Positions 2,864-26,120 are shown, counted from the first letter of the stretch. The stretch: 27,817 bases of DNA from Polyangiales bacterium (GCA_038231275.1 JBBRLQ010000057.1:1-27817); one strand, 5' to 3'. Numbers and translations are program-made. Notes: generated by a model not told the origin, from the letters alone.

Positions 2864-4306
2864 GTGGCAAACGAACCCGCCAAGAATGCGCTGGCCAGCG
2901 TTCGGCCAGAGCCTTTCCTCGAGACGTCCGGCGAGAAGCTCGTCGCCGACGTCGTCGTGGGCGGGAAATATCGCCTCGTTCGGCCCGCAGGGTTCGGCGG
3001 GATGGGGGTGGTTTGGGTGGCAAAGAACCTTGCCACCGACGCCGAGGTGGCGGTGAAGGTGCTCCTTGCCGAGGACGCGGGCTCGGGAGAGGCGTCCACG
3101 CGCTTCCGGCGTGAGGCGCACGCAGCGGCGCGTCTCGCGCATCGCGGGATCGTGCGCATCTTCGATCTCGTCGAGCTCGACGGTGTGCACGATGGCGCGC
3201 TCCTGATGGTCATGGAGCTCCTCCGTGGGCAGACCCTCGCGGACGCGTTCGATCAGAAGCACAAGCTCGAGGTCCCCGAAGCGCTCGACCTCACGATCGC
3301 GCTGCTTTCGGCCCTCGGGCACGCGCACGAAGCGGGGATCGTGCATCGGGACCTGAAGCCCGAGAACGTGTTTCTTTCCGCCGATCCCGACGGGCACGTG
3401 ACACCAAAGATCCTCGACTTCGGCATCTCCAAGCTCGAGAGCCCGGGCGCGCCGCGCATCACGGGGGACGGCGCGCTGCTTGGAACGCCGAGCTACATGT
3501 CCCCCGAGCAGGCGCGCGGCTCCGGCGACGCCGACGCGCGCAGCGATCTCTTCACGATGGGCATTTTGCTCTACGAGATGCTCGCGGGGAGAAACCCCTT
3601 TGCCGAGGGCAGCTACCACTCCGTCGTTGCCGCCATCCTCGAGCGTGAGCCTCAACCTCTGGCGGACGTGCCGATCGCGCTTTGGTTGGTGATCGAGAAA
3701 GCGCTGCGAAAGCGTCCCGCCGAGCGTTACCAGACGGCGGAGTCGCTCGCCGACGCGCTCATCGCCGTGCGCGACGGCCGGCCGGCGCCGGTCTCGCTGC
3801 CCCCCACCGATCTGGAGGACGACTTCAGCCCCTCGCAGCCTCCGCGCCGCCCGTCGCGACGTCCGGCGCCGACCGTCCTCAACGCGCGCGGCGCCGCGAC
3901 GGCGCGCACCCGAGGCCGCGGCGCGCTGATCGCATCCTTCATCGTCGCGCTCACGCTCGCCGTCGGCGCGTTCTTCTGGCTCGGCTGGAAGGGGACCACC
4001 CCCGCGCGCCCAGCACCGATGGCCTCGCCAACACCGATTCCGGAGGTCGCCATCGACGCCCTCCCGGTTGCCGCCGCCCCGACTCCGACTCCGACTCCGA
4101 GTCCGACTCCGACTCCGAGTCCGACTCCGACTCCGACTCCGACTCTGACTCCGAGTCCGACTCTGACTCCGAGTCCGACTCCGACTCTGACTCTAACTCC
4201 GGCCGCGACCCCCACCCACCGACGCGTCCGGCCTCCGCGTGGCGTCCCGCGGCCGCCTCCGGATCCGGCGCCCCCCAGCACGGTGGCGCGCGACCCCGGT
4301 TTCTAG
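2864..4306 (+). CDS. Membrane-anchored Hanks-type Ser/Thr protein kinase
   Basis: GFGGMGVV, VAVK, HRDLKPEN, DFG and GTPSYMSPEQ are all intact. One TM helix (ALIASFIVALTLAVGAFFWL), Pro/Thr stalk, terminal RDPGF. GTG 2864 chosen because GAGGGT lies 7 nt upstream and it avoids overlap with the divergent gene. Confidence 0.93.
   Translation: MANEPAKNALASVRPEPFLETSGEKLVADVVVGGKYRLVRPAGFGGMGVVWVAKNLATDAEVAVKVLLAEDAGSGEASTRFRREAHAAARLAHRGIVRIFDLVELDGVHDGALLMVMELLRGQTLADAFDQKHKLEVPEALDLTIALLSALGHAHEAGIVHRDLKPENVFLSADPDGHVTPKILDFGISKLESPGAPRITGDGALLGTPSYMSPEQARGSGDADARSDLFTMGILLYEMLAGRNPFAEGSYHSVVAAILEREPQPLADVPIALWLVIEKALRKRPAERYQTAESLADALIAVRDGRPAPVSLPPTDLEDDFSPSQPPRRPSRRPAPTVLNARGAATARTRGRGALIASFIVALTLAVGAFFWLGWKGTTPARPAPMASPTPIPEVAIDALPVAAAPTPTPTPSPTPTPSPTPTPTPTLTPSPTLTPSPTPTLTLTPAATPTHRRVRPPRGVPRPPPDPAPPSTVARDPGF
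4079..4200. repeat. Imperfect (CCGACT)n tandem repeat, about 20 units, encoding the Pro-Thr/Pro-Ser stalk
   Basis: CCGACT units interspersed with CCGAGT and CTGACT variants. Confidence 0.95.
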
Positions 4307-10627: not shown

Positions 10628-10770
10628 GCGCGGGACAATTGCCGATTTCGCGAGGCCGCACAAGTCCTCAATAGGGGCCCTCAATCGGGCCGCCGTGGCG
10701 CCGATCCCTGCCATGAGCTTTGACATCGCGGCCGGGTAGGGGGGATAAGGCGGGCCGGGAGATCCCTCGC

Positions 10771-11478
10771 ATGTCGCTCGCCCTTTTCCAGGCCGCCGTT
10801 GGCGCGACCGATCCGCCGCGCCTCGACCCCGTGCAGCTCGTCCTCGGGGCGTCGCTGCCGGTAAAAATCGTCATCATCCTCCTCGTCGCATTCTCGCTGA
10901 TGTGTTGGCTGGTCATCGGCCTCAAGGCGCTCCACCTCTCGCGCGCGAACGCGGAGAGCACGCGCTTCGTGAAGGCGTTCGACGGTGCCGACGACTTCGA
11001 GCACCTCGCGAAGGATCTCGCGGCCTACCGCGGGTCGCCATTCGCGCGCATCTTCGCGACCGGGTACGACGAGATGGTCCGCGTCTCGCGCGGCGCTCGA
11101 AAAGAGCTGACCGACGCGCAAGGCACGCACGTCGAAACCGCCACGCGCCGCGCCGCCGCCGAAGAGATCACCCACCTCGAGTCGTGGATGAACCTGCTCG
11201 GCACGATCGGCTCGACGGCGCCGTTCATCGGCCTCTTCGGCACCGTCTACGGGATCATGGACGCGTTCCTCAGCATCGGAAACCAGCAGAGCGCAAACCT
11301 CCCGGTCGTCGCGCCGAAGATCGCCGAGGCCCTCATCGCCACCGCCATCGGCCTCGTCGCCGCGATCCCGGCGGTCATGGCGTACAACTATTTCGCGCGC
11401 AAGGTCGGCATCCTCGCCGACACCATGGACGGCTTCGCGTCCGACGTCGCCGCGCGCGCCAAGCTCGGGGGCCTCTGA
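10771..11478 (+). CDS. tolQ: TolQ (MotA/TolQ/ExbB proton channel)
   Basis: GSTAPFIGLFGTVYGIM and IAEALIATAIGLVAAIPAVMAYN; first gene of a tolQRAB-like cluster. Confidence 0.92.
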   Translation: MSLALFQAAVGATDPPRLDPVQLVLGASLPVKIVIILLVAFSLMCWLVIGLKALHLSRANAESTRFVKAFDGADDFEHLAKDLAAYRGSPFARIFATGYDEMVRVSRGARKELTDAQGTHVETATRRAAAEEITHLESWMNLLGTIGSTAPFIGLFGTVYGIMDAFLSIGNQQSANLPVVAPKIAEALIATAIGLVAAIPAVMAYNYFARKVGILADTMDGFASDVAARAKLGGL

Positions 11479-11479
11479 C

Positions 11480-11914
11480 ATGGGCATGAGCGCGGCCGCG
11501 GGCGGGGGCCGTCATGGTCGCCGTCGCCTCGGCGGGATGAACGACATCAACGTGACGCCGCTCATCGACGTCATGCTCGTGCTCCTCGTCATCTTCATGG
11601 TGACGGCTCCACTCCTCACGACCGGCGTCCACGTCGACCTGCCGAAGGTGAAGAGCGCCCCGATGCAGACGGACGATTCGAAGCTTTTGGTGATCGTGAC
11701 GAGCGACGAGCACGTCTATCTTGGGAAAGACGAGATCACCGGCGCCGTGGACGACCGCCTCAAGAACAACACGCGCCTCCAGACCGAGAAGGAGCTGTAC
11801 ATTCAAGCGGACGAGAACGTGAAATACGGCGCAGTCTTACGCGTGATGGCCGCGGCCCGCGGGGCCGGGGTCGAGAAGCTGGGCATGGTGACCGACCCCC
11901 TGGTGGTTAAGTAG
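11480..11914 (+). CDS. tolR: TolR (ExbD/TolR family)
   Basis: DINVTPLIDVMLVLLVIFMVTAP with the essential TM Asp, plus IQADENVKYG. Confidence 0.93.
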   Translation: MGMSAAAGGGRHGRRRLGGMNDINVTPLIDVMLVLLVIFMVTAPLLTTGVHVDLPKVKSAPMQTDDSKLLVIVTSDEHVYLGKDEITGAVDDRLKNNTRLQTEKELYIQADENVKYGAVLRVMAAARGAGVEKLGMVTDPLVVK

Positions 11915-11977
11915 GCGTGAGCTGAACCGCGGACGACGGATTCGACGGCAGAGCTTTGACGGACGAAGGGCTTAGGA

Positions 11978-12751
11978 ATGGCGACGGCGTGGCGACCCAA
12001 ATACGAGGGGGACGAGATCGCGCTGGGCGTGTCGCTCGCGATCGCGCTGCACGGCATTCCGATCGCCGTCATCATCCTCTATTCGATCGGCGTCTTCACG
12101 CGCGCGCCGCAGACAGATGAACAACCGTTCGTCGCGAAGCCGGTCATCGCCGCGACGCTGCTGAAGCTCGGCAAGCCGATCGATCCGAGCAAGCTCCCCG
12201 ATCGCATCGTCCCGCGCGCGCGCACGGCGCCCAAGCAGGATCTCCTCGCGTCGACTGACGATCCGATGAAGAAGCACGACGCCGGCGCGCCTCCTCCGCT
12301 CGCGCAGGACTCGGACATCTCGCGCCTCATCGCCAAGAGCGATCCGTTCGCCGAGGACGCGGGCAAGGATCGCCCCGACGAAGGCCACGCGGCCGGCATC
12401 GACGGCGGCACCGAGACCGATCCGAACAAGGTGAAGGCGGGAGACATGTACGCCGCGCTTCTCCGCAAGTTCCTGCAGGACCGCTGGCAGATCCCGACGC
12501 TCATCTCCCAAGGTGAAGCGTCGCGCCTCTGCGTGTCGTACAAGATCACGCTGGATCAGCGCATGCGGATCTTCCACATCCAGACGACGCCCGTGAAGGG
12601 GAGCGGAAACGACTTGTTCGACGAGTCGGCTCGAACGATGCTCCAGAAGCTCATGGACGACAACACTTCGCTCCCGCAGCCACCCCCCGAGGTGGCCGAG
12701 AGCTGGCTCAGGCGCGCGGTCAACTTGAAGCTCGGAGATGGATGCCGATGA
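11978..12751 (+). CDS. TolA/TonB-like energy transducer
   Basis: N-terminal TM with Ser/His (SLAIALHG), Pro/charged linker, TonB/TolA C-domain features (RWQIP, SGNDLFDESA). Lies between tolR and tolB. Confidence 0.8.
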   Translation: MATAWRPKYEGDEIALGVSLAIALHGIPIAVIILYSIGVFTRAPQTDEQPFVAKPVIAATLLKLGKPIDPSKLPDRIVPRARTAPKQDLLASTDDPMKKHDAGAPPPLAQDSDISRLIAKSDPFAEDAGKDRPDEGHAAGIDGGTETDPNKVKAGDMYAALLRKFLQDRWQIPTLISQGEASRLCVSYKITLDQRMRIFHIQTTPVKGSGNDLFDESARTMLQKLMDDNTSLPQPPPEVAESWLRRAVNLKLGDGCR

Positions 12752-14046
12752 AGAAGGCTCTTTCGCTTGTGGGCTTCGGTGTCGCAGGGGTGCTCGTCGC
12801 GTCGTTTCCAGCGACCGCGCAGACGCCGGCGCCGACGGGCAGCGCGCTCCCGACGGCGGCAGGTCCCACCGGAGGCGAGGTGACGACGATCACCGTCCCG
12901 GGCGGCAGCCGCTCGCTCTTCAAGGTCGCGGTCGTGCCGCCGGTCGGCGATCCCGGCGTCGGCCAGACCGTGACCGACACCGCCGGCCGCGACCTCACGC
13001 TCTCGTCGCTCTTTCAGGTCCTCGATCCGAAGAGCTTCACCGCGAACACCGCGGCCGAGGGCAACACGATCGATCCGGCAAGCTGGCGCAACGTCGGTGC
13101 CGAGGGCGTCATCAAGGGCGTCACGTCGATGCGCGGCGCCAACGTGCACCTCGAGATGAAGCTCTTCGTCGTCTCGCGCGGCGCCGCCGAGGTGCTCAAG
13201 AAGGAGTACGACGTCCCCGCGACCGGCGTACGCGGCGCCGTGCACCAGTTCGACAACGAAGTCGTGAAGTGGTTCACCGGCACGCTGGGCTCGTTCGGGA
13301 CGCGCATGGTGTTCTCCGCCACGACCGGGCGCGGGCAGAAGGGCATCTTCTCGATCGAGAGCGACGGGCAGGGCGTCTCGCGCCTCCCCGCGGTGTCGAA
13401 CGTCGCCCTCGCGCCGGCGGTCGGCCCCGGCGGCGTGTACTACGCGGGCGGCCTCGCCGACGGAAGCTACGCGCTCTTCCGCGTCGGCAACCCCGCGGCG
13501 GTCCTTCGCCACGCGGGCCTCATCTTCGGCGTCGCGTTCGGCGGCGGCAAGATGGCGCTCGTCATCTCGCAGAACGGCGTGAGCGACATCTGGACCGGCC
13601 AACCCGATGGCAGCGGCCTCACCAGGGTGACGAACGGCGGCCTCAACACGCACCCTGCGTTCGGCGGCGGCGGGCAGCTCGCCTACGTGTCGAACAGCGG
13701 CGGCAACCCGCAGATCCACGTCGACGGAAAGCGCGTCTCGTGGCGAGGCTCGTACAACATGTCGCCTGTATGGTGCAACGATCCGGAGGGGACCAAGCTG
13801 CTCTTCATGGGCCGTGACGGCGGCACGTGGGACATCTTCAGCGTCGATCCCAGCGGAAGCGCCGCCAGCATGAAGCGCCTCACGCAGGACCAGGGATCGA
13901 ACACGTATCCCGCGTGCGCGCCCGATGGCCGCATGGTCGCGTTCTTCTCGACGCGCGGCGGCCTCTTCACCTCGAACGTCGCCGGCATGAACCAGCAGAA
14001 GATCGCCAGCGTCACCGGCGAGAGCCTCCGCTGGGAAGGCAACTGA
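12748..14046 (+). CDS. tolB: TolB-like periplasmic beta-propeller protein
   Basis: Signal peptide, TolB N-domain features (DLTLSSLFQVLDPKSF, WRNVGAE, FGTRMVF), PD40-like repeats (HPAF, YVSNSGGNPQI, PDGRMVAF). ATGA overlap with the upstream stop. Confidence 0.85.
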   Translation: MKKALSLVGFGVAGVLVASFPATAQTPAPTGSALPTAAGPTGGEVTTITVPGGSRSLFKVAVVPPVGDPGVGQTVTDTAGRDLTLSSLFQVLDPKSFTANTAAEGNTIDPASWRNVGAEGVIKGVTSMRGANVHLEMKLFVVSRGAAEVLKKEYDVPATGVRGAVHQFDNEVVKWFTGTLGSFGTRMVFSATTGRGQKGIFSIESDGQGVSRLPAVSNVALAPAVGPGGVYYAGGLADGSYALFRVGNPAAVLRHAGLIFGVAFGGGKMALVISQNGVSDIWTGQPDGSGLTRVTNGGLNTHPAFGGGGQLAYVSNSGGNPQIHVDGKRVSWRGSYNMSPVWCNDPEGTKLLFMGRDGGTWDIFSVDPSGSAASMKRLTQDQGSNTYPACAPDGRMVAFFSTRGGLFTSNVAGMNQQKIASVTGESLRWEGN

Positions 14047-14054
14047 CGGGCGCG

Positions 14055-14771
14055 ATGCCTCGCGCGGCGCGGGTCAGCGCAATCCTGATGCTCGTCGCGC
14101 TCGCGGCGTGCAAGACGCCAGGGCCCCCCGCCGACGAGTGCAGCGGCGCCGCTCCGGTGTGCTTCGATCTCCTCGCGGCGAACGTCGGCTGCTGCGCGGA
14201 GGCCGGCGTCCCCGCGGAGTGCGGCCCCAAGGACGCGCCGCAGGGCACGCACCTCAAGTGGGTCTGCCCCGGCAAGAGCGTCCGCGCCTCGGACTGCTCG
14301 GCGTACGGCGCGGTGTGCGCCACGCACGTCGATCAGGTCGCGCCCTCGCTCGCGACGCCTCACGCGGTGCCCTTGCCCGGCGATCCGGGCGCGCCGCTTC
14401 CCGCCGGCTGGCTCGACGCGTCGGCCGGCAGCGTGCTCGCCGACGACAGCCAACCCCTCAGCCAGTTCTACACGCTGCGTCGCTACACGACGCGCATCAG
14501 CGGGCCTGACGCGGTGAAGGAGCACGCCGACGTCTACTTCGGCAAAGACCGGCTGACGGAGCGGCGCTACCTCCTCGCGCCGGCGGGCGACTTCCTCCTG
14601 TTCGAGGACGGAGCGAACCGCCTCGCGGTGCATGGCGCGGTGTCCGGCAAGAAGCGCGACGCGACGCCGAAACCTTACGAGCCCTTCACGACCGCCACGT
14701 TCGACGTTCAGAAGAAGACCGTCGTCGTGACCTTCGCGAAGCGCGGGCCGTTGACGGTCCGGCTCCCTTGA
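14055..14771 (+). CDS. Putative Cys-rich lipoprotein, unknown function
   Basis: ATG 8 nt after the tolB stop, lipobox LAA-C, N-terminal Cys cluster; no OmpA/Pal motif visible. Confidence 0.65.
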   Translation: MPRAARVSAILMLVALAACKTPGPPADECSGAAPVCFDLLAANVGCCAEAGVPAECGPKDAPQGTHLKWVCPGKSVRASDCSAYGAVCATHVDQVAPSLATPHAVPLPGDPGAPLPAGWLDASAGSVLADDSQPLSQFYTLRRYTTRISGPDAVKEHADVYFGKDRLTERRYLLAPAGDFLLFEDGANRLAVHGAVSGKKRDATPKPYEPFTTATFDVQKKTVVVTFAKRGPLTVRLP

Positions 14772-15024
14772 GCGCCGGCGGTTTTTAGAGTAATTGCTCT
14801 ACCCGCGCTCGAAGCGCAGCAGTTGCGTTCGGGCACCGCCTGATGGGGCGGATCGCTACAGATCGCGCGTGCGTTCGTGTACTCGCGGTCCGCCGCCGCC
14901 ACGACAGGACCCCACCGAAGCTTGCCCCTATTCCAATTTGGTAGTGCGTTTCCTGTAGAAATCCGGAAACCTGGAACGGGGGTTTCTCCACAGAAAACAT
15001 GAACGTAACCGAAGCGAGCCTTTC

Positions 15025-16644
15025 ATGATCCCTTCCCTTCCATCCGCGCCAGCTTCGTCCCCACGAACCATTTCGCGCGCGCGCACCGCGCGGCTCGGCG
15101 CAGGTCTCGTCACGCTGGTCGCCGGCTTCAGCAGCTGCTCGCCGACGTTCCAGCCGAAGGCCTGCGCGACCGACGGCGACTGCGGGAGCGCGCTCGTCTG
15201 CGTGCAGCAGACCGGACCCGGCGTGTGCAAGTCTCCCGCGGACGCGCCGATCCGCATCGGCATGAGCGCGCCCGTCTCGGGGCCGAGCCAGGATCTCGGC
15301 ACGGAGATGAAGAAGGGCGTGACGCTCGCGTTCGACGCGCAGAACGCCGCCGGCGGCATCCGCGGGCGCCAGCTTCAATTGAACTTCCGCGACGATCAAT
15401 ACGTCCCGTCCGCGGCGGAGCAGGCCGCTCGCGATCTGCTCGACGTTCAACCGCAGCCCGGCGTCACCGCGAAGTGCCCGACCACGACGAACTCGCTCGT
15501 CGCCGGCACCGATCCGGTCGGGTCCTCGGCCCTCACGCGCGGACCGAACGGCGTCATCGCGCTCTTGGGAAACGTCGGCACGCCGACCATGGTGCGCACC
15601 GCGCCGCTCGCCGTCGAGACGCAGAGCCTCTTCTTCGGCGCGTTCACCGGCTCGGCCAAGATGCTGCGCGATGGCGCATCGGGCCCGTGCGGGAAATACA
15701 TCTTCAACGTGCGCGCGAGCTACGGGCAGGAGGCGCGCGCGACGCTCGAGTTCTTCCTGAAGAGCGGTGGTGTGCCCGACTCGGCGCACCTCGTCAGCTT
15801 CGATCAGAACGACACGTTCGGGCAGGCCGGCTACGACGGCCTCGTCAACGCCTGGACCGCGCTGAAGACGGCGCCGCCCCCGAACACCTCCGGCGACCCG
15901 ACCAACCCGATCAAGCGATTTCGCTACACGCGTGACGACCAGACGAGCGTGCCCTCGCAGGTCGCGGCGGCGACGGCGTACCTGGCGTCGCTCGTCGCGT
16001 CGGACAGCGCACCTTCGGTCAACGTCGGCATCTTCATGACGGACACGTACGGGCCCGCGACGACCTTCATCAAGGGCGTGCGCGACTGGCAATACGCCCT
16101 CACCTCGGACGGGGTCACGTACGTGAGCCCCGACGCCGCCAACCGCCTGAAGCTCACGATCAGCAACGTGTCGTTCTCCGGCGCCAACTCTCTCGCGCAG
16201 CGCCTCAAGGACCTGGGGCAGGTGAAGACGCCGACCGGACCGAAGGCCTACAGCGACAGCGTGTTCGTGTCGCAGGTCGTGCCCAACTACCAGAGCGACA
16301 GCAGCGACGCCGTGCGCGATTACAAGAAGGCGCTCGAGGACGCGCGCCTGACGCCGAGCTTCACGTCGCTCGAGGGATACCTGGCCGCGCGCGTCTTCAT
16401 CGCTGGGCTCCTCGCTCATCAGGGGCCGTACACGGCGGAGGCGCTCATCAACACGTTCGAGCACCTGCCGAACCTGGCGCTCGGCCTCGGCGCGAACGCC
16501 GGATTTTCTGCGTGCGGCAACGACGTTTGCAAGACGCAGCACAACTACTCGAAGTCTGTGTGGGGCACGGCGCTGTCGCCGGACGGGACGTTCACCAATC
16601 GCTACTTCTGGACGGACGGAACACCCCTGCAGCTCTTCGAGTAA
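15025..16644 (+). CDS. Periplasmic binding protein type 1 (LivJ/branched-chain ABC SBP-like) lipoprotein
   Basis: Lipobox-like FSS-C, Cys-rich mini-domain, IRIGMSAPVSGP, GGIRGRQLQL..RDDQY, LLGNVGTPT, FNVRASY, SQVVP, SLEGYLAARVF. Confidence 0.85.
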   Translation: MIPSLPSAPASSPRTISRARTARLGAGLVTLVAGFSSCSPTFQPKACATDGDCGSALVCVQQTGPGVCKSPADAPIRIGMSAPVSGPSQDLGTEMKKGVTLAFDAQNAAGGIRGRQLQLNFRDDQYVPSAAEQAARDLLDVQPQPGVTAKCPTTTNSLVAGTDPVGSSALTRGPNGVIALLGNVGTPTMVRTAPLAVETQSLFFGAFTGSAKMLRDGASGPCGKYIFNVRASYGQEARATLEFFLKSGGVPDSAHLVSFDQNDTFGQAGYDGLVNAWTALKTAPPPNTSGDPTNPIKRFRYTRDDQTSVPSQVAAATAYLASLVASDSAPSVNVGIFMTDTYGPATTFIKGVRDWQYALTSDGVTYVSPDAANRLKLTISNVSFSGANSLAQRLKDLGQVKTPTGPKAYSDSVFVSQVVPNYQSDSSDAVRDYKKALEDARLTPSFTSLEGYLAARVFIAGLLAHQGPYTAEALINTFEHLPNLALGLGANAGFSACGNDVCKTQHNYSKSVWGTALSPDGTFTNRYFWTDGTPLQLFE

Positions 16645-16650
16645 TTCCTC

Positions 16651-18258
16651 ATGAGTGAATCTTCCAGTAAAAGCTCCGGCTCTGCCGAGGGCACCGACGC
16701 GAAGACCGAGACGTTCGGGCGGTATGTGCTCTACGCCCCCATCGCGCGCGGGGGCATGGCGACCGTGCACATCGCGCGGCTCGTCGGCGCCGAGGGCTTC
16801 AGCCGGATCGTCGCCGCGAAGCGCTTGCATGAGCAGTACACCGAGGATCCGGACTTCGTGACGATGTTCCTCGACGAGGCTCGCATCTCGTCGAAGCTCC
16901 ATCACCCGAACGTCGTCAGCGTGCTCGACGTCGTCCTGTCTGGGAAGGACATCGTGCTCGTCCAGGAGTACGTGCACGGCGTGCCGCTCGACAAGCTCGT
17001 GAAGGCGAGCCAGACGCGTGGGCTGCAGCTGCCGGTGCCCATCGCCGTGGCCATCGTGGCCGGCACGCTCCTGGGCCTCCACTCCGCGCACGAGACGAAG
17101 GACGAGCTCGGCGAGCCTCTCAACATCGTTCACCGCGACGTGTCGCCGCAGAACGTCATCGTCAGCGCCGATGGCATCCCGCGCCTCCTCGACTTCGGCA
17201 TCGCGAAGGCGCGGTCGAGCGCGCATGTGACCCAAGAGGGCTTCTTCAAGGGGAAGATCACGTACATTCCGCCGGAGCAGCTGCGCGGCGAGCCGCCGGC
17301 CCGCACGACCGACATCTACGCGGCGGGCGTCGTGCTCTGGGAGCTCCTCGTGGGACGCCGCATGCACGCGGGCCGCGGCGAGAGCGAGCTCTTCTCGGCG
17401 GTGCTGAGCGGCTCGCTGCCGACACTCGAAGAAGCGGTCGCCGATCAGCGCGAGACGATGCCACCCGAGCGCTGGGACGCGCTGGCGAAGCTGAGCCCCC
17501 TCGTGATGAAGGCGCTGGCGAAGACCGCGGACCAGCGCTTTCAGACCGCTGAGGCGATGGCGGACGCGCTCCGGGCGACGTTCCCGCCGGCGGCGCCCAA
17601 TGATTTGGCGGCGTGGGTGAGGGATCTCGGCGCCGATTTTCTCGAGGCGCGTCAGCGGGTCATCACCGCCAACGAGGAGAGCTGGCGGACGATGCGGCGC
17701 CTAGGGTCGGGGCCGACCAGCGTGCCCAGCGTCTCGAGCGGCGTCACCTCCGGCATCCAGCCCCTCGCCGGCCTCCGCGACGCGACCCCTTCGCGCGGCG
17801 CCGCGCCGACGATCCCTGACGCCTCCTATCCTCGAGAGGAGCCGCGACCGATGAAGCGAAGTTGGCCTCTCATCTTGCTGCTGCTCCTCTTCGTGTCTGG
17901 AGTCTCGGCGTTCGTCGTGCTGCGCTTTGGGCCCAAGCAGGTGGGACCGACCCCCGAGCCTCCCGTGGGTGCGACCACGGCCGCGGCGCTGCCGCCGATC
18001 TCGCCGCCGGTTCCGCAGCCCGATCCATCCGCGCCCATCGCCGCCGCGGTGCCGAGCACGCCCGACCCGCCGACGCCAAAGCCCGTGCAGGTCGTCGTGC
18101 ACCCGCCCTCGCGGCCTCCTCCTCCTCCGCCGCGCCCTGTCGCGCACCCGCCCTCGCCGCCTCCGACGCCGCCTCCGGCGACGCCCACCCCGTCCAACTG
18201 CAACCCGCCGTACTACTTCGAGGGCACGAAGAAGGTCTTCAAGCCCGGCTGCATCTGA
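16651..18258 (+). CDS. Membrane-anchored Ser/Thr protein kinase (myxobacterial HRDVSPQN type)
   Basis: ARGGMATV, AAK, HRDVSPQN, DFG, GKITYIPPEQ, TM (WPLILLLLLFVSGVSAFVVL), poly-Pro stalk, terminal CNPPYYFEGTKKVFKPGCI. Confidence 0.94.
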   Translation: MSESSSKSSGSAEGTDAKTETFGRYVLYAPIARGGMATVHIARLVGAEGFSRIVAAKRLHEQYTEDPDFVTMFLDEARISSKLHHPNVVSVLDVVLSGKDIVLVQEYVHGVPLDKLVKASQTRGLQLPVPIAVAIVAGTLLGLHSAHETKDELGEPLNIVHRDVSPQNVIVSADGIPRLLDFGIAKARSSAHVTQEGFFKGKITYIPPEQLRGEPPARTTDIYAAGVVLWELLVGRRMHAGRGESELFSAVLSGSLPTLEEAVADQRETMPPERWDALAKLSPLVMKALAKTADQRFQTAEAMADALRATFPPAAPNDLAAWVRDLGADFLEARQRVITANEESWRTMRRLGSGPTSVPSVSSGVTSGIQPLAGLRDATPSRGAAPTIPDASYPREEPRPMKRSWPLILLLLLFVSGVSAFVVLRFGPKQVGPTPEPPVGATTAAALPPISPPVPQPDPSAPIAAAVPSTPDPPTPKPVQVVVHPPSRPPPPPPRPVAHPPSPPPTPPPATPTPSNCNPPYYFEGTKKVFKPGCI

Positions 18259-18268
18259 AGAGGATCCC

Positions 18269-19177
18269 ATGAACCACTGCATCCGAAGCTTCGCGAGCGG
18301 GCTGGTGGCCACGAGCCTCCTCATGACGACCGCCGGTCCCGCGCTCGCGGCGCCGACCAAGGACGAGTGCGTCGAGGCGCACGGGCGCGGCCAGGACCTG
18401 CGCGAGGAGGGGCGCCTCACCCGCGCGCGTCAGGCCTTTCTCACGTGCAGCCAGCCGACGTGCCCTTCGCTCGTCCAGTCGGATTGCTCGCGCTTCGTCG
18501 AAGAGCTGGGGCGAATCCTGCCGAGCGTCACGTTCGTCGCGCGCGACACGAAGGCGACCGATCTCCCGAACACCGCGGTCTACCTCGACGAACAGCTCGT
18601 CGCGTCGCGCCTCGACGACGGCAAGAGCTACGACGTCGATCCCGGCAAGCACGCCGTGCGCTTCGTCCACGACGGCAAAGAAGTATCGATGCGCGTGGTC
18701 GTGACGCAGGGCGAGAAGGGGCGCAATGTCATCGCGACCTTCGCCGACGCAGCGGGAGGCGAGCCCGCGCAGACCGGTAGCGGCACGCGTCCCTCCTCGG
18801 CCGGTGAGCCGCCGTCTGCGCCGCCCGAGCCGAGCCGCCCGGTCTTTCCGCTCGTCCTCGCGGGCGCAGGCGCGGTCACCCTGGGCATCGGCGTCGTCTT
18901 GCTCGCGGTAGGCCTCGGCAAGGTGCCCAGCAACTGCAACAACTCCACGAAAGAGTGCGCGGCGCCGCCCTTCGACAAAGCGTTCGACGACGCGCACAGC
19001 GGCGTGGCGATGGCCAACGCCGGCGTCGTGCTGGGCATCGCGGGCGGCGCCATCGCCGCGACGGGGCTCATCTGGTACTTCGCGCAGGCCCCGCAAGCGA
19101 AGATCCGCACCGGCAAGGGCTTCAGCCCCTGGGTCGCGCCCGGCACCGGCGGCGTCAGCTTCTCCGGCGCGTTCTAG
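18269..19177 (+). CDS. Secreted Cys-containing TPR-like + PEGA-like protein with C-terminal membrane anchor
   Basis: GAGGA upstream of ATG 18269; signal peptide ending ALA-A; helical ECVEAH...C...CP...DC region; PEGA-like VYLDE...VDPGKHAVRF; two hydrophobic helices; terminal GGVSFSGAF. Confidence 0.8.
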   Translation: MNHCIRSFASGLVATSLLMTTAGPALAAPTKDECVEAHGRGQDLREEGRLTRARQAFLTCSQPTCPSLVQSDCSRFVEELGRILPSVTFVARDTKATDLPNTAVYLDEQLVASRLDDGKSYDVDPGKHAVRFVHDGKEVSMRVVVTQGEKGRNVIATFADAAGGEPAQTGSGTRPSSAGEPPSAPPEPSRPVFPLVLAGAGAVTLGIGVVLLAVGLGKVPSNCNNSTKECAAPPFDKAFDDAHSGVAMANAGVVLGIAGGAIAATGLIWYFAQAPQAKIRTGKGFSPWVAPGTGGVSFSGAF

Positions 19178-19186
19178 CCTCGGCCT

Positions 19187-19267
19187 TTCCTTCGGGAGCG
19201 TTTCGCTCCGCTGCGCTTCGCTCCACGTTCCTTCAGGAGCGTTTCGCTCCGCTGCGCTTCGCTCCAC
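19187..19267. repeat. Two tandem 40-bp REP-like units, each with a GGAGCG-TTT-CGCTCC hairpin
   Basis: 19187-19226 and 19228-19267 differ at one base; located between convergent stop codons. Confidence 0.9.
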
Positions 19268-20611
19268 TCAGCCGTCGGCGAGCAATCGCTCGATCGTGCG
19301 CGTCGTCATCGCGCCGCGCACGACCTCGTCGTCCCGAAGCAGGCGCTTGTGCAGCTCGATGTTGGTCTTGATGCCGCCGACGATGAACTCGTCCAGCGCG
19401 CGGCGCATGCGTAAGATCGCCTCGAATCGCGTCGGCGCGTGGACGATGACCTTCGCGAGGAGCGAATCGTAGTCGGGCGGCACGCGCCACCCGCCGTACA
19501 CGCCGGAGTCGACGCGCACGCCGGTGCCGCCGGGCGGACAATACTCGGTGATGAGGCCCGGCGACGGCGCGAACGTCTTCGGATCCTCGGCGTTCACGCG
19601 GCACTCGATGGCGTGGCCGCGGAAGCTCCAGGGGCGCGTGTCCGGAAGCTCCAGCTTCTCACCGGCGGCGGCGCGGATCTGGAGCGACACGAGATCGAGG
19701 CCGGTCACCATCTCGGTCACGGGGTGCTCGACCTGCACGCGCGTGTTCATCTCCAGGAAGAAGAGCTTGCCGTCCTCGTCCATGATGAACTCGAGGGTGC
19801 CGAGCGTCGTGTAGCCGGTCTCCAAGATGGCGCGGCGGATGACCTCCGCCATCTCCTGGCGGCGCTCCGGCGTCATCGCGGGGCTGGGCGCCTCCTCGAT
19901 GACCTTTTGGTGGCGGCGCTGGAGCGAGCACTCGCGCTCGCCGAGCGTCCATACGCCGCCGTGCTGGTCGGCGAGCACCTGGAACTCGATGTGGCGCGGG
20001 CGCTCGACGTATTTTTCGCAGTAGACGTCGGGGTTCTTGAAGCCCGCGTCGGCCTCGCGCGTCGCGGAGAGGAAGTTGCTCTCGACCTCGGCCTCGGTCC
20101 GCACGATGCGCATGCCGCGCCCGCCGCCGCCGCCCGATGCCTTCAGGATGACGGGGAAGCCGATGCGCGTGGCCTCCGCGCGCGCGTGAGCGGCATCCTT
20201 CAGGACGCCGCTGCCGGGGAGGAGAGGGAGGCCGTATTTTTTCGCGTTCTCGCGGGAGGTGACCTTGTCGCCCCACGCGCGCATCGCTTCGGGCGTCGGG
20301 CCGATGAAGGTGACCCCGCACTTGGCGCAGAGGCGCGCGAACTCGGCGTTCTCGGACAGGAAGCCGTAGCCGGGGTGGACCGCCTCGGCGCCGGTGATCT
20401 CCGCCGCGCTGATGATCGCGGGAATGTGGAGGTAGCTCTTGCTCGCCGCGGCGGGGCCGATGCACACGCTCTCGTCGGCGAAGCGCACGTGGAGCGCGCG
20501 CGTGTCGGCCTCCGAGTGGACGGTGACCGTCTTGATCCCCATCTCGCGGCATGCGCGGAGCACGCGCAGTGCGATCTCTCCGCGGTTGGCGATCAGGATT
20601 TTTTTGAACAT
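19268..20611 (-). CDS. accC: Acetyl-CoA carboxylase biotin carboxylase subunit
   Basis: [55 protein letters not shown]. Confidence 0.97.
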
Positions 20612-24257: not shown

Positions 24258-25661
24258 GTGTCGACAAAGGGACGACTGACCCGGCAAGAGCTGGGCTGGC
24301 TGCTGACGCAAGAGGCCGCCAACGCCGCCGATCGATTGCGCTCCGGCGTGCAGGTGCTCCGGACCAACGCGCCGCCGCCCTCCGACGAGGTGCCGGTCCT
24401 CCCCGACATCCCTGTCGAGGCGTCCCTCGACGCACTCGACGACGTGATGAAGATGCTCACGTCGCTGCACGCGAAGCCCTCGAGCGGTCGCGGGCGACGC
24501 GGCCGAATCGACCTCGCGTCGCTGCTCTGGGAGGTCGCCCCCGACGCGCGCGTCGCCATGGAGCCGGGCAGCGGCACCGAGGTGAACGGCGACGAAGGGG
24601 AGCTGCGGCGAATGCTCCACGTGGTGCTCGGTCACGGGACCGGCGCCGGCTCGCACGTCGCGATCAAGCGTGAAGGGGAGGAGGTGCGGGTCTCCGTCAC
24701 CCTCGGCCCCGACAGCTCCGCGATGGCCGACACCGAGCGCGCGTGGCTGCACCGCATGGCCATCCGCTACGGCGGCCGGCACGAGCTCGAAGGCGGCACG
24801 GAGTCGCTCGTCTTCCCAGCCGACGGCGCGTACGAAAAGAAGGAGCGTGAGGCGCTCCAGAAAGAGCTCGACGAGGCGCGCAAGCAGGGTGAGGCCTACG
24901 CGCGCGAGCTCGCGCAGGCGTTCGCCGCCGGCGAGGACACGGCGTCGACCTCGACGTTTCCGCCATCGCCAGGACGCGATCGTTTCCCGATCGTGGCGCA
25001 GCTCGCCGGCGCGATGGCGTCCGAGATGCGGACGCTCCTCTTCCCGATCGTGCGCGATCTGAAGGGCTCGCGCCCCACCGACGAGACGCTGGACGGCGTG
25101 CGTCGCCGCCTGACGCAGGTGCAGGACTTCCTCATCGGCCTCGCGGGCATCGGCGAGCTCGATCCGAACGAGCTGCCGATCGAGGTCGATTTCTGCGACG
25201 TGTCTCGCCACGCGACGCGCGCGCTCGTCCCGCGCGCCGAGCGCGGCGGCATCACCCTCAAGCTCGTCACGCTCCCCGACGCCCCGGACCTCCGCGCCTA
25301 CGGACGCTGCGCGCCGCGCGCCGCGATCGCCCTCATCCGCGAGCTGGTCGCGCAAGCCCTGTCGGCCACGCCCCAAGGAGGCGCCGTCACGGTCACCGTC
25401 ACCGCCGCCGGTCACGGCGCGGGAGAGAACCTCGGCACCCGCGTGACCGTCGACGACGGCGGCGCGCCGCTCCCCGCCACCTCGCGCCGTGCCTTTCTCG
25501 CGCTCGAGCTCGACCCCGGCACCTACGGACGCCCTAGCAGCCTTCCCCTCTATATTTGCAGTGAGATCGCGTCGGCGCAGGGGGCCCTCTTGGAGCTCGC
25601 GGATGGCCCGACCGGTGGCCTCCGAATCACCGTGACGTTCCCCCGGGGCAGCGGCTCTTGA
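24258..25661 (+). CDS. Histidine-kinase-like protein with two degenerate DHp/HATPase modules
   Basis: IDLASLLWEV, GDEGELRRML, YGGRHEL in module 1; VDFCDV, TPQGGAVTVTV, VTVDDGG, GGLRITVTFP in module 2. H, N and G2 boxes are not intact. No TM segment. Confidence 0.75.
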   Translation: MSTKGRLTRQELGWLLTQEAANAADRLRSGVQVLRTNAPPPSDEVPVLPDIPVEASLDALDDVMKMLTSLHAKPSSGRGRRGRIDLASLLWEVAPDARVAMEPGSGTEVNGDEGELRRMLHVVLGHGTGAGSHVAIKREGEEVRVSVTLGPDSSAMADTERAWLHRMAIRYGGRHELEGGTESLVFPADGAYEKKEREALQKELDEARKQGEAYARELAQAFAAGEDTASTSTFPPSPGRDRFPIVAQLAGAMASEMRTLLFPIVRDLKGSRPTDETLDGVRRRLTQVQDFLIGLAGIGELDPNELPIEVDFCDVSRHATRALVPRAERGGITLKLVTLPDAPDLRAYGRCAPRAAIALIRELVAQALSATPQGGAVTVTVTAAGHGAGENLGTRVTVDDGGAPLPATSRRAFLALELDPGTYGRPSSLPLYICSEIASAQGALLELADGPTGGLRITVTFPRGSGS

Positions 25662-25733
25662 AGGGGACCCGTTGAGATTCCGCTCAAAAGACCTTCGCTC
25701 TGCGTAGAGTCTCGCGGTACCCTCATCCCACGC

Positions 25734-26120
25734 ATGAGGATTCTCATCGTCGAGGACTCTGACTCCATCCGAAAGATGATCGAGGCGCTGGTCAGCGCGC
25801 GGGGTCACATCGTCAAGGCCGTGTCGAACGGCGCGAAGGGCTTGGAAGAGGCGTTCGACTCCACGCCGGACGTGATCCTCCTCGACCTGAACCTGCCCGG
25901 CTCGTACGACGGCTTTCAGGTCTGCGAGCAGATCCGCGCGAACGCGGTCACGCGCTCCGTCCCGATCCTCATCATCAGCGCGACGAGCGACGACGACGCC
26001 AAGCAGCGCGCCCTCGCCGCCGGCGCCACCGCCTACTACACGAAACCGTTCAGCCCGATGGCGCTGCTCAAAGAGATCGAGTCGATCCGCGTGAAGCAGC
26101 GATCGACGCCCGACGCGTAG
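25734..26120 (+). CDS. Single-domain response regulator (CheY-like receiver)
   Basis: ILIVEDS, phosphoacceptor LLDLNLP, ISA, TKPF. Confidence 0.93.
   Translation: MRILIVEDSDSIRKMIEALVSARGHIVKAVSNGAKGLEEAFDSTPDVILLDLNLPGSYDGFQVCEQIRANAVTRSVPILIISATSDDDAKQRALAAGATAYYTKPFSPMALLKEIESIRVKQRSTPDA

Follow-up and report, generated by a model that had tools for sequence, protein, structure and literature searches.

Myxobacteria have kinomes that are among the largest in bacteria, and in many of their membrane kinases no sensor can be recognised. How such a kinase could receive a signal is the question raised by a stretch of 27,817 nucleotides from a Polyangiales bacterium (GCA_038231275.1, JBBRLQ010000057.1:1-27817), which was analysed over its whole length and is called the window below. 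At positions 15,025 to 19,177, three genes encode a lipoprotein of the solute-binding protein (SBP) type, a Hanks-type Ser/Thr kinase whose part outside the membrane comprises only a stalk and a tail, with no folded ectodomain, and a membrane protein that we call the partner. The stalk-tail kinase is kept beside the partner and the SBP in many soil myxobacteria, and this suggests a receptor built from separately encoded parts. The kinase and the partner very probably act together. For the fuller claim that these two, joined by the SBP in this lineage, make up a non-covalently assembled receptor kinase, we see an even chance.

The features of the three genes are as follows, with positions counted from the first letter of the window (ORF, open reading frame; aa, amino acids; pLDDT, predicted local distance difference test).

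15025..16644, + strand: SBP gene, encoding an orphan type I solute-binding lipoprotein of 539 aa (Peripla_BP_6 match, LivK-like fold)
16651..18258, + strand: Hanks-type Ser/Thr kinase gene, 535 aa and stop (Pkinase match, catalytic motifs)
16717..17580, + strand: cytoplasmic catalytic domain of the kinase, residues ~23-310 (Pkinase match over residues 32-304)
17863..17928, + strand: single transmembrane helix of the kinase, residues 405-426 (hydrophobic segment WPLILLLLLFVSGVSAFVVLRF)
17929..18198, + strand: low-complexity stalk of Pro, Ala, Thr and Ser, residues 427-516 (90 aa, of which 38 are Pro)
18199..18255, + strand: C-terminal two-Cys "plug" of the kinase, residues 517-535 (predicted beta-hairpin bracketed by the two Cys)
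18269..19177, + strand: partner ("socket") gene, 302 aa and stop (ORF, ortholog alignment)
18350..18520, + strand: three-helix head of the partner, predicted periplasmic, with C34, C60, C65 and C73; proposed docking site (AlphaFold2 and conservation)
18521..18748, + strand: transthyretin-like (PEGA-like) beta-sandwich with the motif DPGKH at residues 124-128 (model strands 86-158, Foldseek)
18836..19084, + strand: membrane module, comprising helix 192-217, a loop with C223 and C230, and helix 246-272 (model, conservation)
19085..19174, + strand: C-terminal tail of the partner, ending in a nearly invariant Phe, with a hairpin of low confidence (pLDDT ~60)

Gene Arrangement and Kinase Structure

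The three ORFs lie on the same strand at 15025-16644 (539 aa), 16651-18258 (535 aa) and 18269-19177 (302 aa), with a gap of 6 bases between the SBP and the kinase and of 10 bases between the kinase and the partner. These coordinates and the kinase sequence confirm two observations of an earlier reading of this DNA, made without database searches (the sequence-only reading), namely three co-oriented genes with gaps of 6 and 10 bp, and a kinase without a folded outer sensor whose poly-Pro stalk ends in a two-Cys peptide.

The kinase matches Pkinase (PF00069) over residues 32-304 with 108.4 bits (cut-off 31.7, E 5.4e-31), and the motifs VAAK (54-57), HRD (161-163) and DFG (181-183), the catalytic Lys, HRD and DFG motifs of Hanks kinases, are kept. 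NF033483 matches the kinase part only, at 203 bits, below its cut-off of 450. The transmembrane helix is the top hydropathy window in the kinase and in all 50 orthologs. Across these 51 kinases the stalk is composed mostly of P, A, T and S, has a length of 89-173 residues (median 114) and shows no sequence conservation. The only two Cys of the kinase are in its last 19 residues, CNPPYYFEGTKKVFKPGCI; in the 51 aligned tails C, P, G, KK, K and C are invariant, and the orthologous group of the window has the distinctive form YYFEG.KK.FKP. When the tail alone was folded by AlphaFold2 with the ortholog alignment, strands 26-29 and 32-35 were predicted to form a hairpin between the two Cys (pLDDT 79).

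The Unit in Other Polyangia

Species-representative genomes were scanned with the ortholog alignment, which gave 66 loci in other Polyangia with partner identities of 38-77%. Among the 52 loci having more than 2 kb of upstream DNA, the kinase lies directly upstream of the partner in 47, and the tail motif is present in 47/47; in three further loci (L035, L048, and L065) a kinase ORF is present that was missed by the gap rule. The SBP is found upstream on the same strand in 42 of the 47 loci with more than 4 kb of upstream DNA, and anywhere in the locus in 44 of them. It is downstream of the partner in L020, L021, and L023, and no SBP was found in the loci L051 and L054.

One carrier of the triad is the culturable Labilithrix luteola DSM 27648 (L018). 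The genes flanking the triad vary: Labilithrix has nuo and MatE, a Haliangiales genome a FabH-like gene and a formyltransferase, a Kofleriaceae genome OmpA and RecQ, and the window tol and accBC. Since the triad is conserved while its flanking genes change, the three genes travel as a unit.

Kinase-Partner Pairs in One Genome

The source genome has a size of 9.28 Mb in 164 contigs with ~69% G+C, and the window is its contig C57. Paralogs were searched for in six-frame ORFs of the whole genome, with kinase ORFs taken at E < 1e-10. Fifteen good paralogs of the partner were found, giving 16 class I members. A profile built from these 16 matches 85 ORFs in the genome; the class I members match over their full length, while the other ~69 match in the sandwich and membrane module only, their head of ~130 residues being different and showing a TPR-like pattern (class II). 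Under a rule of adjacency, a kinase ends just upstream of 48 partners, 13 of them in class I and 35 in class II. The tails of the kinases differ between the classes as follows.

Class I pairs: two-Cys tail in 13/13; short aromatic-acidic-basic end in 1/13
Class II pairs: two-Cys tail in 0/35; short aromatic-acidic-basic end in 18/35
Other kinases: two-Cys tail in 1/201 (a false positive); short aromatic-acidic-basic end in 18/201

Two more class I partners (C21 and C32) sit upstream of their kinase, which brings the class I partners beside a two-Cys-tail kinase to 15 of 16. The one ORF of the class I profile left over, C1_310904, is matched from profile position 89 onwards only, and no kinase adjoins it. 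Counted from the kinases, 15 of the 16 true two-Cys-tail kinases in the genome adjoin a class I partner. With both classes taken together, ~51 of the ~252 kinase ORFs keep such a neighbour.

A second pair, of class II, is present in the window itself and is divergent, with the partner at 1756-2859 on the - strand and the kinase at ~2900-4306 on the + strand. In this partner, a TPR-like head, matched by TPR_16 at 3e-6 with 28 bits (under the cut-off of 32.7), is combined with a PEGA-like motif, a linker of PT repeats and a Cys pair flanked by two hydrophobic segments; the protein ends in ...GGVMVIGEF. Its kinase has one transmembrane helix and a Pro/Thr-rich stalk ending in ...ARDPGF.

The class I kinase group was defined by tail and partner before tree building. 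In the tree of catalytic domains, 13 of its 16 members form one clade, with a support of 98 in the Shimodaira-Hasegawa-like approximate likelihood ratio test (SH-aLRT), and the C6 kinase sits on a long branch. The C27 and C77 kinases are nested in class II clades with good support and share 59-61% identity with class II kinases; their catalytic domains are of class II type, yet they have a class I tail and a class I partner. Monophyly of all 16 class I kinases was rejected on catalytic domains (log-likelihood difference 298, p 4.5e-8 in the approximately unbiased (AU) test), whereas class I as one clade was not rejected on the shared module of the partners (p-AU 0.875). The tail thus goes with the partner rather than with catalytic-domain ancestry. 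For C77, a joint swap of tail and head was also considered, as a quick tree had placed its PEGA-plus-membrane module nearest to class II; after the same AU test (p 0.875) this claim was dropped.

The adjacency might be explained by repeated duplication of a two-gene block whose products do not act together. The single clade of 13 class I kinases, together with class I partners that are compatible with one clade, means that much of the census comes from few events, as such duplication would predict. The pairing, however, is still seen where paralogous partners share no more than 23-33% identity, extends across families, has outlasted an exchange of the catalytic domain, and is kept by about a fifth of the kinase ORFs counted above, so that we regard this explanation as very improbable.

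The C18 kinase (G000:C18:36975-40628, L113), which is the closest paralogous kinase to that of the window, directly follows an FHA-sigma54 enhancer-binding protein, and this neighbourhood may hint at the kind of output that such kinases feed. In the same kinase subclade, C1:376523 (G000:C1:376219-378454, L112) has its tail in a frame different from that of the catalytic domain and has no partner nearby; it is either a frameshifted pseudogene or the product of an assembly error.

Distribution in the Phylum

The paralog alignment matches 74 of 301 sampled genomes of the phylum (E <= 1e-10), including 22 of 23 from the window's own family and 5 of 5 from one other family in the class. Because up to 8 candidates were scored per genome, the match counts give no copy numbers. 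Full-length class I matches are limited to those two families among the matches listed. In 21 other genomes, the best class I locus per genome was inspected with flanks of 1.5 kb, and a two-Cys-tail kinase was found in 18. It lies directly upstream in 16; in 2 it is encoded on the opposite strand, at the far end of the locus and in an apparently convergent orientation. The sequence-only reading had linked the two-Cys tail to this partner family, and the two do co-occur, both in the orthologous loci (47/52) and in the class I loci elsewhere (18/21). Against 1.84 billion cluster representatives, the ortholog profile gave 8228 matches at E <= 1e-3, 6009 at E <= 1e-10 and 1274 at E <= 1e-30. Relatives of the window proteins are found in records of Labilithrix, Polyangiaceae, Kofleriaceae and Haliangiales.

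Architecture of the Partner

The partner was modelled by AlphaFold2 on 46 orthologs with a mean pLDDT of 82. In order, the model has a signal peptide, a three-helix bundle (31-83), a beta-sandwich (86-158), a disordered linker (~160-190), a helix (193-217), a short hairpin, a second helix (237-272), and a low-confidence terminal hairpin. The helices of the head (31-47, 50-60, and 67-83) are predicted with a pLDDT of ~96, and its four Cys (C34, C60, C65, and C73) are invariant in the 46 orthologs and in 13 paralogs. Because it has two long hydrophobic helices, the partner appears to be membrane-anchored. Both of these helices carry invariant Gly with heptad spacing. C223 and C230, which lie in a Ser/Thr-rich loop between them, are invariant in the 46 orthologs, and the form CAPxC is found in most paralogs. 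In this loop (residues 218-242, window 18920-18994) a disulfide would be unexpected if it is cytoplasmic, and the Cys pair might be a metal, redox or phosphorylation site.

No family of Pfam or NCBIfam matches the partner, the TPR and PEGA profiles included (no match at E <= 1). Among 13 paralogs, PEGA (PF08308) was found in 0 at E <= 0.1, and CarboxypepD_reg in 2 at 0.039. Solved relatives by sequence were only designed repeat proteins, which match the low-complexity part. Foldseek matches the sandwich only, to 6hif_Y (1.7e-4), carboxypeptidase regulatory domains (2e-4 to 2e-3) and CBM20-type domains, and further, at 2.1e-3 and over ~85 residues, to PDB 9k1u, a chain of the RtkS-PpkA complex. 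PEGA belongs to the transthyretin-like fold class, and "PEGA-like" is used here for the partner as a statement on its predicted fold only. One relative of the partner, P0134 (797 aa), has a partner-like part at residues 9-294 plus ~500 further residues, and may be a fusion or two genes called as one.

The sequence-only reading had called this protein a secreted TPR-PEGA protein that ends in GGVSFSGAF with a terminal Phe. The ending stands, and F302 is kept in at least 90% of the 46 orthologs. The signal peptide is present as well; the protein is, however, not simply secreted, since the two membrane helices had been overlooked. Of the label itself, TPR is given up (three helices only, and no profile match), while PEGA fails by profile and holds by the transthyretin-like fold.

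That reading had also likened the terminal strand to the signal recognised by the beta-barrel assembly machinery, making the partner an outer-membrane protein inserted by its terminal-Phe strand, with the Pro-rich stalk spanning the periplasm. The conserved Phe would fit with this. So would the stalk, which is never shorter than 89 residues in 51 sequences and, if extended, is by our estimate long enough to cross the periplasm, and the Ser following the lipid-modified Cys of the SBP, which is presumably not an inner-membrane retention mark under the lipoprotein sorting rules. The model, however, has two hydrophobic alpha-helices of 25-36 residues and one low-confidence hairpin, with no barrel; several orthologs lack the hairpin although their last residue is Phe; and no outer-membrane protein family was matched by the partner in profile and Foldseek searches. 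We consider this location hardly credible, and favour a partner held in the inner membrane.

Role of the SBP

The SBP matches Peripla_BP_6 (PF13458) with 117.2 bits (cut-off 31.7, E 1.6e-33) and is a LivK-like type I periplasmic binding protein, whose nearest solved relative is the Leu/Ile/Val-binding protein 4kv7_A (E 5e-32). Its N-terminus has a hydrophobic leader that ends in the lipobox Cys (residue 38), and a knot of four Cys (C47, C53, C59, and C68) comes next. By eye, and uncounted, both the lipobox-type Cys and the knot can be made out when the N-termini of the window SBP and 50 orthologs are aligned (51 sequences). The small knot, F.PK.C..D.DCG.GLVC...VC (residues 38-68, window 15136-15228), lies between the lipid-modified Cys and the binding fold. 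We call the SBP an orphan binding lipoprotein because no genes for an ATP-binding cassette (ABC) transporter adjoin it among the 21 ORFs of the window or in the flanks of 3/3 other loci (L018, L053, and L040), a transporter encoded at a distance being possible. The same term in the sequence-only reading is upheld by the Peripla_BP_6 match, the lipobox and the absence of ABC transporter genes at these 4 loci.

Within the genome, the SBP accompanies only 1 of the 16 class I cassettes, that of the window, and is therefore not part of the general kinase-partner module. The three-gene arrangement described in the earlier reading accordingly holds for the window's orthologous group (42/47 loci) and not in general. 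Whether the SBP feeds the same pathway as the kinase-partner pair is, in our estimate, evenly balanced. It might be an ordinary uptake protein for an ABC transporter encoded elsewhere, co-transcribed and without a signalling role, in keeping with its plain LivK-like sequence, with the 15 other class I cassettes that do without one, and with those orthologous loci in which it stands downstream of the partner or was not found. It stays with the pair, however, down to ~40% partner identity while the flanks change, transporter genes are missing beside it at the loci named above, and only two weak relatives of the SBP are present in the genome (3 matches in all). A purely transport-related role is on this evidence quite improbable.

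Receptor Assembly

In the assembly that we propose, the kinase would contribute its catalytic domain in the cytoplasm, a single membrane helix and, in the periplasm, a flexible tether of ~90 residues. The tip of the tether would be a small hairpin bracketed by two Cys and presumably closed by a disulfide, the plug. The partner, held in the inner membrane by its two helices, would supply a folded periplasmic socket made of the four-Cys head and the PEGA-like sandwich. If the plug docks on the socket, events at the partner ectodomain could alter the clustering or the conformation of the kinase, and hence its autophosphorylation. The SBP, in the orthologous group of the window only, would most likely deliver a small-molecule signal, possibly an amino acid or a similar compound, to the complex. 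We infer this docking, as well as the topology, the ligand and activation by clustering, from the arrangement and predicted structures described above.

The docking of tail and head was examined by folding partner residues 28-162 (46-row alignment) with the last 40 residues of the kinase (51-row alignment). Three runs, which share 100% of contacts, gave values of 0.48, 0.48 and 0.45 for the interaction prediction score from aligned errors (ipSAE), against 0.00 for 3 controls, with a partner pLDDT of at least 66. In calibration, the mark was reached by 116 of 157 solved complexes and by 2 of 215 mismatched pairs, and at scores of 0.60 or less were 18 of the 157 plus both mismatches. Binding of the kinase tail to the N-terminal domain of the partner, which the sequence-only reading had put forward, is thus favoured weakly by this fold (0.48 vs 0.00), and that the predicted plug docks on the partner head is to us as probable as the contrary.

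Several points weigh against the proposed assembly. The complex score is in a range where, unless the prior is good, predictions are wrong more often than right, and the fold gave no interface. The tail DNA abuts the partner gene, and one recombination tract can move both, so that co-inheritance need not mean contact. The C18 kinase has a near-identical two-Cys tail and no partner within 2.5 kb even at E <= 10, 3 of the 21 class I loci elsewhere have no kinase within 1.5 kb, and in the orthologous loci L062 and L067 it is the SBP, and not the kinase, that is directly upstream of the partner. Fused forms of the SBP or the partner, kinase-partner and kinase-SBP fusions included, were not found among the longer proteins searched, which is weak evidence. 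A tether of at least 89 residues seems longer than needed for a head on a linker of ~30 residues. A periplasmic head followed by two helices would place the invariant C223 and C230 in the cytoplasm, for which the model offers no explanation, and the conserved last Phe of the partner is likewise left unexplained.

Some of these points would suit a different relation, in which the partner is a regulator, scaffold or substrate acting via membrane-helix contacts or its cytoplasmic loop, and the two-Cys tail binds the SBP, a cell-wall or glycan ligand, or another kinase tail. The heptad-spaced Gly of the partner helices are typical of tight helix packing, the Ser/Thr-rich loop with its two invariant Cys would face the kinase's side of the membrane, the C18 kinase keeps its tail without any nearby partner, and the window group, the sole class I cassette with an SBP, is also the one with the distinctive tail. 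Tail type, however, tracks the type of partner head in the 48 pairs and across catalytic-domain lineages, the two-Cys tail is present in 15 cassettes without an SBP, and the tail-head fold passed its controls, although weakly. We judge this relation unlikely, while giving it some weight.

If the docking of plug and socket is extended from the triad to the genome, Polyangia may wire a large share of their kinome (~51 of ~252 kinase ORFs here) through a plug-and-socket code. Interchangeable periplasmic end-pieces, either a disulfide-closed hairpin or a short linear end, would be carried by sensor-less kinases, and each would select one of dozens of paralogous sockets composed of a helical head, a PEGA-like sandwich and a pair of membrane helices, while binding lipoproteins and other components would bolt on. 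The Cys pair on the cytoplasmic side of the socket, in its Ser/Thr-rich loop, would then be a second site that is read or written by the kinase via phosphorylation, metal binding or redox. This idea is tentative, and we lean against it more than towards it.

Surroundings of the Triad

A non-coding stretch of 253 bases lies 5' of the triad, and accC is convergent with its end. A scan of 14600-19400 gave no promoter-like sites, and 2 terminator-like sites in the same range are at chance level (shuffle mean 2.3). A sigma-54-like promoter, TGGAAC-N5-TTTCT at 14972, 5' of the SBP, was considered and dropped, a similar motif being found upstream in 1 of 48 orthologous loci.

Just upstream, at window 10720-14768, is a tol-like cluster that encodes a MotA/TolQ-type channel, a TonB_2/TolA-like protein and TolB, and is closed by a lipoprotein-like ORF (~14100-14768) with no OmpA/Pal domain match. 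At window 24258-26117 (+ strand), a histidine kinase with a weak HATPase_c match is followed by a stand-alone receiver protein; these are unrelated to the triad.

Comparison with Known Systems

Our literature searches, the coverage of which did not extend to the original and possibly relevant myxobacterial kinome study, found no description of kinase-linked PEGA-like partners. If the proposed assembly is true, the missing sensor subunit would be named for about a fifth of the kinases of this genome, and a large unannotated family, for which Pfam and NCBIfam have no model, would be defined (6009 cluster representatives at E <= 1e-10). The pairs would also be a simple material for studying specificity among dozens of paralogous receptors per cell.

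The kinase resembles the PASTA kinases PknB, StkP and PrkC in that a Hanks domain in the cytoplasm is joined to a single membrane helix and the input is extracytoplasmic. These kinases, however, carry their sensors in the same chain, whereas the chain of the window kinase has no folded ectodomain and the folded part would come from a separate gene. In LuxP-LuxQ and TorT-TorS, an orphan periplasmic binding protein is the ligand-sensing subunit of a membrane histidine kinase that has a folded periplasmic domain. The window kinase is, in contrast, of Ser/Thr type, and a third protein of the membrane is added.

TPR clamps bind C-terminal peptides, as Hop does with the EEVD ends of Hsp70 and Hsp90. 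A likeness to these clamps fits the class II pairs, which have a TPR-like head and a short aromatic-acidic-basic kinase end in 18/35 vs 18/201 of other kinases. Unlike a TPR clamp, the window partner has three helices and two predicted disulfides, and would bind a folded hairpin and not a free linear end.

A separate protein that regulates a membrane Hanks kinase is described for RtkS-PpkA of Serratia type VI secretion (PMC6082577). The triad is alike in having a separately encoded protein for a membrane Hanks kinase, and one chain of that complex (9k1u) weakly resembles the partner sandwich in fold. RtkS is reportedly a soluble periplasmic protein that acts on a folded periplasmic domain of PpkA. 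Tether, two-Cys plug and paralog expansion have no known counterpart in RtkS-PpkA, and the same is true of GlnH-GlnX-PknG for the tether-and-plug kinase and the expansion.

In PknG, which is soluble, a TPR domain is part of the kinase itself, and GlnX relays the signal across the membrane. For GlnH-GlnX-PknG of mycobacteria and Corynebacterium, a binding lipoprotein, an integral membrane protein and a Ser/Thr kinase encoded in one locus are reported, with the ligand state relayed to the kinase (PMC6069109, PMC9769921). This is the system closest in logic to the triad, whose three linked genes have products of the same kinds. The window kinase differs in being itself membrane-spanning, with a tether and a plug, and its lineage is Myxococcota. 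The likeness of the triad to GlnH-GlnX-PknG is one of gene content and logic only; the partner matches no Pfam or NCBIfam family. If the proposed assembly is true, the triad would add an independent second case of this logic, outside Actinobacteria.

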